64,000 nucleotides of DNA from Planctomycetia bacterium (GTDB taxonomy: Bacteria > Planctomycetota > Planctomycetia > Pirellulales > JALHLM01). Positions 10,440 to 11,327 of this stretch are shown here, piece after piece (the first letter of the stretch is position 1; the number at the start of each line of letters is the position of its first letter). A program made the position numbers and the translations under genes. The stretch spans positions 1-64,000 of the forward strand of contig JAWXBP010000181.1 in NCBI GenBank assembly GCA_034440135.1, in the 5' to 3' direction. Below the pieces are notes generated by a model. That model was given only the letters and a program-made list of their open reading frames with translations. It had not been told where the DNA came from and did not search any database.

Positions 10440-10454
10440 TTTCGATTTCCATTG

Positions 10455-10512
10455 CCTGGGCTGCTCGTAAACGGATTGCCAAGGGCACCGAAGCCCGACG
10501 AGCAGCCCAGGC
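10455..10512. repeat. palindromic element (arms GCCTGGGCTGCTCGT / ACGAGCAGCCCAGGC), 15 bp after the nrdJ stop
   Basis: Perfect 15-bp inverted arms with a 28-bp loop. Different from the REP family arms. Confidence 0.5.
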
Positions 10513-10567
10513 TTTGCCTGGATGGAGTGAAGAATGCGGTGTTAAGTTGGTCAATATCGTGCAAGAA

Positions 10568-10633
10568 AAGCCCAGGGAAGGCCCTAGAAGATTTTTGCCG
10601 ATGGAACAATCATCGGAGGCCTTCCCTGGGCTT
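10568..10633. repeat. REP-like palindromic element, copy 1 (arms AAGCCCAGGGAAGGCC / GGCCTTCCCTGGGCTT)
   Basis: 16-bp perfect terminal inverted arms around a variable 34-bp loop containing an inner hairpin (CCGATG...CATCGG). Lies 31 bp upstream of the RAYT gene. Confidence 0.75.
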
Positions 10634-10663
10634 AACCGCGAGCGCCGCAATAACGGTGATTTG

Positions 10664-11209
10664 ATGAACGTTGACGACCGCGTCTGGTATCACGTCATAG
10701 TCACCACTTATGGCGCTTGGCTATACGGCGACGCTCGCGGTTTTCGTACGCGCCATCATCGCCAACACATAGATGGCGATTACAAGAATCCGCCGACCGA
10801 CGACTATTCGGAAATCGAACTCCGCAGCCGAGAATCCCTTGAGCAAGATGCGGTTTCGCTTACGCCCTATTGGCAACCACTTGTCGGCAATGCGCTCTAT
10901 GCCGAATTCACTCGGCTCGGCGCTTTCATGTCGGCAATCGCCGTAGCCATGCAGCATGTGCATTTGCTCGCGAAGATGCCGTCTGGTTGCCAGCGGCACT
11001 GGCCAGGTCGAGCGAAGCGTAAAGTAACGCTTGTCTTGCGACAGCAGGGCTGGCTGGGCAAGCTCTGGGAAGTGCGCAGTAAAGCGATCCCCATACGAGA
11101 TGTCTCCCACTACGAAAACGCACTTCGCTACATATTGGCGCACGCCGAACACGGGGCTTGGACGAAACAATGGACCGCCGAGCCGGAACGAATAAATCGT
11201 GATTGTTGA
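10664..11209 (+). CDS. REP-associated tyrosine transposase (RAYT; IS200/IS605-like HuH transposase)
   Basis: N-terminal WYHVIVTTYGAWLYGDARGF and HuH motif MQHVHLLAK. Candidate catalytic Tyr region HYENALRYILAH. ~181 aa. Flanked on both sides by REP copies. The ORF-table start 10364 is an extension across the REP. Confidence 0.7.
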   Translation: MNVDDRVWYHVIVTTYGAWLYGDARGFRTRHHRQHIDGDYKNPPTDDYSEIELRSRESLEQDAVSLTPYWQPLVGNALYAEFTRLGAFMSAIAVAMQHVHLLAKMPSGCQRHWPGRAKRKVTLVLRQQGWLGKLWEVRSKAIPIRDVSHYENALRYILAHAEHGAWTKQWTAEPERINRDC

Positions 11210-11229
11210 GCGCGACATCGCGCAAGAAA

Positions 11230-11295
11230 AAGCCCAGGGAAGGCCCTCGGAGACTTCTCCATTGGCAAAAGTCTTCGGAGGCCTTCCCTGAGCTT
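11230..11295. repeat. REP-like palindromic element, copy 2
   Basis: AAGCCCAGGGAAGGCC ... GGCCTTCCCTGAGCTT (one mismatch). Lies 21 bp downstream of the RAYT stop, between convergent genes. Confidence 0.75.
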
Positions 11296-11327
11296 AGCGC
11301 GAAAAGACGCCGCTATTCTCTCCCCTC

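Follow-up and report, generated by a model that had tools for sequence, protein, structure and literature searches.

The 64-kb window analysed here (positions 1 to 64,000 of contig JAWXBP010000181.1, from a Planctomycetia bacterium; 62% G+C) contains at 10568-11295 what is probably a module of the REPtron kind: a gene encoding a divergent HuH-Y1 nuclease, with one copy of a 65-nucleotide (nt) hairpin repeat on either side and further copies of it between other genes. REPtrons are the pairs of repetitive extragenic palindromes (REPs) and REP-associated tyrosine transposases (RAYTs, also TnpA-REP) of E. coli and Pseudomonas, known from the structure 4ER8 and from the REPINs of Bertels and Rainey. 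They best exemplify mobile DNA that is kept within bacterial lineages by vertical inheritance, and their mechanism is known from a few proteobacterial cases. In the planctomycete system the fold of the nuclease, its invariant catalytic residues and the purifying selection acting on its gene are established. It is likewise shown that gene and hairpin are linked throughout the family, that hairpins are dispersed without the gene, and that the hairpin arms are under selective constraint.

The nuclease gene and the hairpin repeats

The nuclease gene is the open reading frame (ORF) at 10664-11209 on the + strand. It encodes 181 amino acids (aa) reading MNVDDRVWYHVIVTTYGAWLYGDARGFRTRHHRQHIDGDYKNPP...AMQHVHLLAK...ALRYILAHAEHGAW. 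The original prediction had placed a 181-aa ORF with YHV...TYG and HVHLL (HuH) motifs at these positions, and both YHVIVTTYG and QHVHLL are indeed present. The HuH pair is His98 and His100 (codons 10955-10957 and 10961-10963), the candidate catalytic residue is Tyr156 (codon 11129-11131), and His160 (11141-11143) follows four residues further on. Among all ORFs of the window this is the only one with the HuH-plus-Tyr pattern.

The 16-nt repeat arm AAGCCCAGGGAAGGCC has 14 matches in the window at up to three mismatches, against 0.60 expected, and none of 100 shuffles reached 14. Twelve of the matches pair up as six inverted pairs, forming hairpins of about 65 nt (c1 to c6). Copy c1 (10568-10633) has a 16-bp basal stem topped by an upper stem and loop that vary. 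Its end lies 30 nt before the ATG of the nuclease gene, and c2 (11230-11295) starts 21 nt past the stop codon of that gene. The remaining four lie 30 nt past the stop of ORF 12273-15173 (c3, 15203-15268, with a T-rich tail on the + strand), 29 nt past the stop of an rsfS-like ORF at 15447-15863 (c4, 15892-15956, with the tail TTTTTTGC), 16 nt past the stop of ORF 16092-16547 (c5, 16563-16627), and between the convergent ORFs 39760-40500 (+) and 40637-42154 (-) (c6, 40531-40595). Single mismatches occur in three right arms, at 11280 (in c2), 15941 and 40580; in the alignment of the six copies the arms are otherwise invariant and the interiors variable. Arm scan and alignment thus agree with the earlier claims that the two copies beside the gene have the same 16-nt arms and differing interiors, and that four further copies occur in the window.

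All six copies are intergenic and stand at gene 3' ends, and five begin 16-31 nt beyond a + strand stop codon. The sixth, c1, begins 129 nt beyond the stop of nrdJ, behind a separate palindrome (10454-10512) described below. The repeat is a symmetric palindrome, AAGCCC...GGGCTT, that reads the same on both strands and has no unpaired 5' GTAG or CGTC tag. An Rfam scan of the whole window gives no match, and the hairpins are therefore not a described RNA family. Over the 69 repeat sites collected from the window and its relatives (see below) the median distance to the nearest stop codon is 29 nt; a sorting of these sites into convergent, tandem and divergent was discarded because the rough gene caller used had mis-called known window genes.

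Gene and hairpin in relatives

To judge from sequence comparison, the decisive evidence for a system of REP/RAYT type is the linkage of gene and hairpin across relatives. At the related locus L001 (91% DNA identity) the order nrdJ-nuclease-dioxygenase is the same, and both flanking repeats, c1 and c2, are kept at the same positions. Homologs 53-60% identical in the NCBI metagenome-assembled genomes (MAGs) DATAWG01, DATAXP01 (homolog P0024) and JBFWND01 sit among entirely different genes, with hairpins of about 65 nt on both sides whose arms read AAGCCCAGGGAAGG... or close variants thereof. A scan of metagenome contigs yields 80 further loci at 43-58% identity and three identical to the window. 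Relatives at 43-60% identity occupy unrelated gene neighbourhoods, and in the metagenome loci the strongest inverted repeat upstream and downstream of the gene recurrently begins (A)AAGCCC and ends GGGCTT(T); examples are AAAGCCCAGGGACG-gc-CGTCCCTGGGCTTT, AAGCCCACGGGTT-gc-AACCCGTGGGCTT, AAGCCCACGGACG-gc-CGTCCGTGGGCTT and AAAGCCCACCCGTT-gc-AACGGGTGGGCTTT. Doublets of the flanking palindrome are found in several loci (L072, L099, L101, L109 and L136).

At least one flanking palindrome unit is present in 65 of the 85 homolog loci, many metagenome contigs being too short to display both flanks. Under a stricter definition of the palindrome, at least one is found in 49 of the 72 loci for which both flanks are available, and both are found in 23. 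Near the gene (within 200 nt) strict palindromes number about 2.5 per kb, compared with 0.037 per kb in the remainder of these loci and a single match in 617 kb of shuffled sequence. The first four arm bases, GCCC, are fixed by the search definition; among the free positions, 5 is A in 96/104, 7 and 8 are mostly GG, and 6 and 9-11 vary between lineages. One locus, L097, has AAGCCCAGGGAAG-gc-CTTCCCTGGGCTT on both sides of its gene, which amounts to the window arms minus the interior. Given this locus and the family-wide flanking palindromes, the 65-nt element of the window is a lineage-specific long form, with an apical insertion of about 33 nt, of a family-wide REP-like palindrome of about 28 nt. 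Pairs of loci with the same repeat type have more similar proteins than other pairs (identity 0.590 vs 0.557; 0/1000 permutations), a result that we do not count as co-evolution since shared ancestry accounts for it equally well.

Dispersal, constraint and age of the repeats

To follow dispersal of the repeat, GTDB genomes, one for each species, were scanned for the exact pattern, and copies with at most two mismatches per arm were then extracted. The window-type element is found in three Pirellulales MAGs, JALHLM01, DATAXP01 and CAVTYW01. The 69 distinct copies comprise at least 47 in JALHLM01, at least 8 in DATAXP01, at least 6 in CAVTYW01, six in the window and two in L001. The nuclease gene is encoded in none of the 59 repeat-bearing loci of the three MAGs, and the hairpins therefore far outnumber the genes; the window itself has six copies and one gene, and the three MAGs at least 61 more copies.

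The MAG JALHLM01 is a close relative, its locus L053 being 85-89% identical to window 37146-43860 and carrying the ortholog of c6 (L053 3801-3865). Between the orthologous pairs (c1 and c2 against L001, c6 against L053) 3/96 arm positions have changed, against 27/101 in the interiors (Fisher 2e-6), and the arms are thus constrained. The interior drifts at about the synonymous rate. It is still selected to pair: its folding is more stable than that of shuffled versions (mean z -1.17, Wilcoxon p 1e-8), and two interior pairs, C19:G and G23:C, are conserved above a small internal loop.

In JALHLM01 a few copies form close pairs, spaced 27 nt apart in L057 (1060-1216) and 262 nt apart in L051 (203-596); the others are all single.

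Family and predicted fold of the nuclease

Direct family scans of the window protein were replaced by profile, structure and member-by-member comparisons. A word-indexed search yields 192 homologs, none of which has a precomputed Pfam domain; where named, their sources are Pirellulales, Gemmataceae and other planctomycete MAGs. An exhaustive profile search of the nuclease family gives 1,595 clusters at 50% identity (E<=1e-3). In 32 diverse members His98, His100, Tyr156 and His160 are invariant, and there is a conserved block Y16-G-x-W-L-x-G-D-x-R-G-F-R-T-R-H-x-R...G-D...P44, corresponding to an invariant basic, His-rich insert of about 30 aa after the first strand (residues ~17-45). The family motifs are QHVH, LW[GA] and Y-I-L-x-H, the last reading R-Y156-I-L-A-H160-A in the window protein.

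When the 32-member profile is compared with the Protein Data Bank (PDB), the top five matches are ISDra2 TnpA and two Sulfolobus IS200 transposases (E 0.016-0.43). The alignment places HVHLL on HVHLL of ISDra2 TnpA and the invariant Tyr156 on its Y132, the residue replaced in the Y132F mutant of PDB entry 2xo6. Scanned member by member, the RAYT model of NCBIfam is the most frequently matched, weakly and in 16 of the 32 (best E 1.8e-5), followed by Pfam Y1_Tnp (PF01797), also weakly, in 11 (best E 1.3e-4) and the NCBIfam IS200 model, touched by eight. For the window protein itself the sole NCBIfam match is REP_Tyr_transpos (NF047646), at E 0.011 and 15.6 bits against a cut-off of 80.

The AlphaFold2 model (pLDDT 86, pTM 0.83) has the beta-alpha-beta-beta-alpha-beta-alpha order of HuH nucleases, with low confidence restricted to the conserved insert. 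Both HuH histidines are predicted to lie on the strand 98-106, and Tyr156 on a C-terminal helix, 147-163. In a Foldseek comparison with the PDB the E. coli RAYT in complex with a REP hairpin ranks first (4er8_A, E 4e-5), and the matches that follow are IS200, IS608 and ISDra2 transposases only. The model thus presents what characterises the HuH-Y1 superfamily, namely a HuH motif on the central beta strand, a single tyrosine on the C-terminal helix and the characteristic fold; the Pfam Y1_Tnp gathering threshold is not reached. Because of the profile matches, the invariant residues, the modelled fold and the Foldseek match we consider the nuclease a remote but genuine member of the HuH-Y1 family. 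Its homology to Y1 proteins rests on profile and structure evidence, not on curated family models.

The nuclease gene is functional and under purifying selection, with a dN/dS (nonsynonymous to synonymous divergence) of 0.17 at a dS of 0.54 against the L001 ortholog (84% aa identity). Its third-codon-position G+C (GC3) is 0.60, vs 0.84 in both neighbours, nrdJ and the dioxygenase gene. Window 9704-13060 is 100% identical to three JGI metagenome contigs (L066-L068), and the dioxygenase to an NCBI protein from a 'Planctomycetia bacterium' MAG. The nuclease gene is uncalled in the identical JGI contigs L152 and L153 and joined into a longer ORF in L151, its low GC3 probably being the reason why it was skipped or mis-joined, and the family is probably under-annotated in planctomycete MAGs.

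Alternative explanations

Several findings weigh against a REPtron-like module. A Pfam scan of the 181-aa protein gives no family even at E<=10, and in the Pfam and NCBIfam scans no curated model attains its threshold for the nuclease or its relatives. The original prediction had proposed a significant Y1 transposase match as its check; with nothing from Pfam and the score of NF047646 far below its cut-off, the outcome, taken formally, goes against it. The hairpin lacks an asymmetric 5' tag and conserved flanking nucleotides: among the repeat copies no conserved nucleotides that could be candidate cleavage sites are found outside the arms, the information content of the flanks being at most 0.35 bits, and the guide and cleavage-site logic of IS608 and the E. 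coli RAYT is therefore not mappable onto it. The repeat-rich MAG JALHLM01 yielded no nuclease gene in its repeat-bearing loci, although this MAG may be incomplete, and DATAXP01 has window-type repeats, yet its homolog is merely 56% identical and has degenerate flanks. In many relatives the hairpins stand beside the gene only, with few or none elsewhere in 10-20 kb, so dispersal is lineage-dependent. Finally, the compared copies c1, c2 and c6 are all old and common to relatives, and no insertion polymorphism of the 65-nt repeat is seen among the compared relatives; recent mobility is thus not documented.

The alternative that survives best, although we regard it as unlikely, is an autonomous IS200-like insertion sequence (IS), in which the 728-bp hairpin-tnpA-hairpin unit (10568-11295) moves as a whole, solo hairpins being remnants of its ends or derivatives akin to miniature inverted-repeat transposable elements (MITEs). 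The unit does resemble IS200, and the low GC3 of the gene suggests a selfish origin. However, there is one such unit in 64 kb, and among 85 loci no near-identical gene is found in two contexts, gene pairs at least 90% identical always sharing their outer flanks. The locus is kept with both hairpins in L001 at 91% DNA identity, and the gene has been under purifying selection across a dS of 0.54. An IS would also not lead us to expect hairpins far in excess of genes, with 59 repeat-bearing loci devoid of the gene, nor two ends formed by the same symmetric palindrome in place of distinct left and right ends with guide sequences. A tblastn search of plasmids gave no match, which is weak evidence as there are few planctomycete plasmids in the collection. 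We therefore prefer the REPtron reading to an active IS; the nuclease gene appears to be immobile and vertically inherited.

Somewhat less probable still is the reading that the HuH nuclease is fully domesticated and serves the host, for example by processing hairpins at stalled forks or regulating itself, and that it binds hairpins that it no longer mobilises, the repeats being fossils. The old and immobile orthologous copies c1, c2 and c6, the purifying selection on the gene, and arms that have hardly changed in genomes with homologs at no more than 56-60% identity would all be in keeping with it. Against it, copy numbers diverge widely between related genomes (at least 47, 8 and 6), suggesting expansion in some lineages, and the interiors within one genome differ on a common plan, as past replication predicts. 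This explanation overlaps the REPtron reading and differs from it only in present-day activity.

Least likely of all, in our estimation, is that the hairpins are mainly terminators or mRNA-stabilising stem-loops under host selection, lying beside the ORF by chance and not acted upon by its product: the 3'-end positions of the window copies, the T-rich tails (four or more T among the 8 nt that follow on one side) in 20/69 copies vs about 6.5 expected and in 5/6 window copies, the ordinary hairpin-plus-T-run terminator in the place of c2 in the relative L147 (4140-4180), and the arm conservation at orthologous sites, which indicates a host-level or element-level function, speak for such a role, but about 70% of copies have no T tract, a simple terminator consensus scan does not report the elements, termination does not need 16 base pairs identical across genomes, and it leaves unexplained why the same palindrome flanks both sides of the gene in unrelated neighbourhoods at ~65x the local background. 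Termination is probably a secondary role for which some copies have been co-opted. On the - strand c2 comes directly after the convergent dioxygenase gene and has TTTTTCTT behind it, and could therefore terminate that gene.

Relation to known Y1 systems

The REPtron-like module of the window shares with the REPtrons a small and apparently single-copy Y1 HuH gene bracketed by a palindromic repeat that is dispersed intergenically at gene 3' ends, apparently vertical inheritance with long persistence of gene and repeats, and closest structural and model matches to TnpA-REP. The repeats flank the gene (30 nt upstream and 21 nt downstream in the window, likewise in L001, and as variants in 65/85 loci) and outnumber it. 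Unlike the RAYTs, the window family has the tyrosine motif Y-I-L-x-H and not Y-I-x-x-N-P, carries the basic, His-rich insert, and scores below the NF047646 cut-off; unlike the REPs, its repeat is symmetric without an unpaired GTAG/CGTC tag, and in the window lineage it is a two-tier hairpin of 65 nt and not a REP of 20-40 nt or a two-REP doublet. The REP/RAYT-type architecture originally proposed is thus supported by fold, catalytic residues and comparative genomics, whereas the GTAG/CGTC tag, the Asn or Gln expected in a Y-x3-N/Q motif and scores above the curated cut-offs are all missing.

Unlike the IS200/IS605 TnpA systems (IS608, ISDra2, IS200), the window system shows no sign of multiple gene copies or of gene movement, has no tnpB partner, and has two identical, symmetric ends. 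Its protein has His, not Gln, four residues after the tyrosine, and its hairpins are far more numerous than the gene. In the window, in L001 and among the 85 loci we find neither multiple copies of the whole element at varying sites nor, at the window element, distinct left and right hairpins with guide tetranucleotides.

Class 3 TnpAY1 proteins, described by Quentin et al. 2018 (PMC6006769), occur mainly in Planctomycetes and Acidobacteria and have the motifs NHVH, W[TA] and YV[VI]xEQ with a CnGA foot. Their genes are flanked by atypical and sometimes genome-abundant structures, and the authors place them closer to REPtrons than to IS (PMC6006769). The window protein is similar in length (~178 aa in class 3) and phylum. 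It differs in its motifs (QHVH, LW[GA], Y-I-L-x-H), in its AAGCCC foot and in lying below the filter of Pfam Y1_Tnp at E<0.01 with which class 3 was gathered (PMC6006769), the comparison with class 3 being one with its published description. In the described Y1 classes Gln or Asn stands four residues after the tyrosine (PMC6006769), and the window family has His.

Di Nocera et al. 2013 (PMC3733652) sorted REPs by their GTAG or CGTC tags and reported for Rhodopirellula baltica several tagged families (GTAG-20/21) together with many Y1 genes. As in R. baltica, the window system combines palindromic intergenic repeats with an associated Y1 gene in a member of the Pirellulales; unlike the GTAG families, its repeat has no unpaired terminal GTAG. 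The strings AAGCCC and GGGCTT are absent from the supplementary files of PMC3733652, and a literature search, which was not exhaustive, found no paper describing this nuclease and hairpin family. The suggestion that the genome has its own, possibly undescribed pair therefore holds in that the system fits neither published description, and needs amending in that REP and Y1 elements are already known in planctomycetes (PMC3733652, PMC6006769). The system works like a REP/RAYT pair, yet fails several formal tests for RAYT, IS200 and class 3 alike.

A wider proposal, possible though on balance still doubtful, is that these proteins form an unclassified, phylum-wide class of Y1 HuH enzymes. It would comprise about 1,600 clusters at 50% identity that Pfam Y1_Tnp does not see and gene callers often overlook, with an AAGCCC...GGGCTT foot fixed down to ~45% identity, a Y-x3-His motif plus insert, no tag, and a way of recognising and cutting hairpins unlike that of either IS608 TnpA or the E. 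coli RAYT. In the Pirellulales lineage of the window the 28-nt palindrome would have gained its apical insertion of ~33 nt and become a two-tier 65-nt element with an additional terminator function.

Proposed mechanism and significance

By analogy with IS608 TnpA and E. coli TnpA-REP, we infer that the protein binds, cleaves and mobilises the hairpins, and it may in this way proliferate or maintain the repeats. The element would fold into a hairpin when the DNA is single-stranded, for example at a replication fork, and the protein would recognise the invariant 16-bp foot AAGCCCAGGGAAGGCC / GGCCTTCCCTGGGCTT, perhaps helped by the strongly conserved basic, His-rich insert. A metal bound by His98 and His100, and probably also by His160, would activate cleavage, with Tyr156 forming a covalent 5'-phosphotyrosine link. 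Elements could then be excised, copied or re-joined, leading to their spread or maintenance.

With this nuclease family, whose protein escapes curated models, the REP/RAYT principle is extended to Planctomycetota. As there is no guide tag on the hairpin, recognition is expected to follow another rule, and the combination of a foot fixed family-wide with an inner stem that varies between lineages offers natural variation from which a protein-DNA recognition code might be read. Assembly and annotation of planctomycete MAGs would gain from awareness of these repeats.

Other palindromes and neighbouring genes

Directly after nrdJ lies a separate palindrome (10454-10512) that is not a member of the repeat family; its 15-nt arms (10454-10468 and 10498-10512) are 100% complementary. 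The left arm is a copy of the terminal 15 nt of nrdJ (10423-10437; 13/15 identical) together with the TA of the stop codon, so the right arm could pair with either copy. L001 preserves the palindrome through a compensatory double change, GCCTGGGC/GCCCAGGC becoming GCCTAGGC/GCCTAGGC. For nrdJ the palindrome may act as a terminator or as an element of alternative pairing. It had been noted earlier as a second, unrelated palindrome; it is there, but 'unrelated' is inexact, as the octamers CCTGGGCT / AGCCCAGG are common to its arms and the foot of the 65-nt repeat.

On the other side of the module, an empty-site comparison by way of relatives of the dioxygenase gave no clean answer, the downstream neighbourhood being different in every relative found. 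Relatives whose dioxygenase is 85-88% identical show a different gene order downstream of it: L146 has a variant repeat 3' of the dioxygenase gene (2005-2082 and ~3724-3782; arms AAGCCCAGGGCAAGCC / GGCCTGCCCTGGGCTT) and no nuclease gene, and L147-L149 have an ordinary hairpin-plus-T-run terminator there. One contig, L154 (VFKV01001269.1), stops 5 nt past the dioxygenase stop codon, near the position that c2 has in the window, and the repeat may have broken its assembly.

A second and unrelated palindromic family of about 91 nt is present at 272-362, 12299-12389 and 31738-31828, with the structure GGGTGCCACTGGCGGCTTGTCCGCCAGTG + 31-33 nt + CACTGGCGGACAAGCCGCCAGTGGCACCC. As each 29-nt arm is a hairpin in its own right, the unit resembles a doublet of the REPIN kind. 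L001 (91% identical) lacks the copy at 12299-12389: the window has 127 nt at this site vs 25 nt in L001, a difference of 102 nt that is in frame in the 5' end of ORF 12273-15173. Among all fetched loci the family is confined to the window's own population, and the HuH-plus-Tyr scan of ORFs gives no cognate Y1 gene for it in the window. Further long inverted repeats lie at 42573-42668, 26650-26773, 61653-61759, 43345-43454 and 27660-27731, with 43-nt arms that are 77% complementary or 15-20-nt arms that are 85-100% complementary, and loops of 42-86 nt. The window genome is unusually rich in long hairpins.

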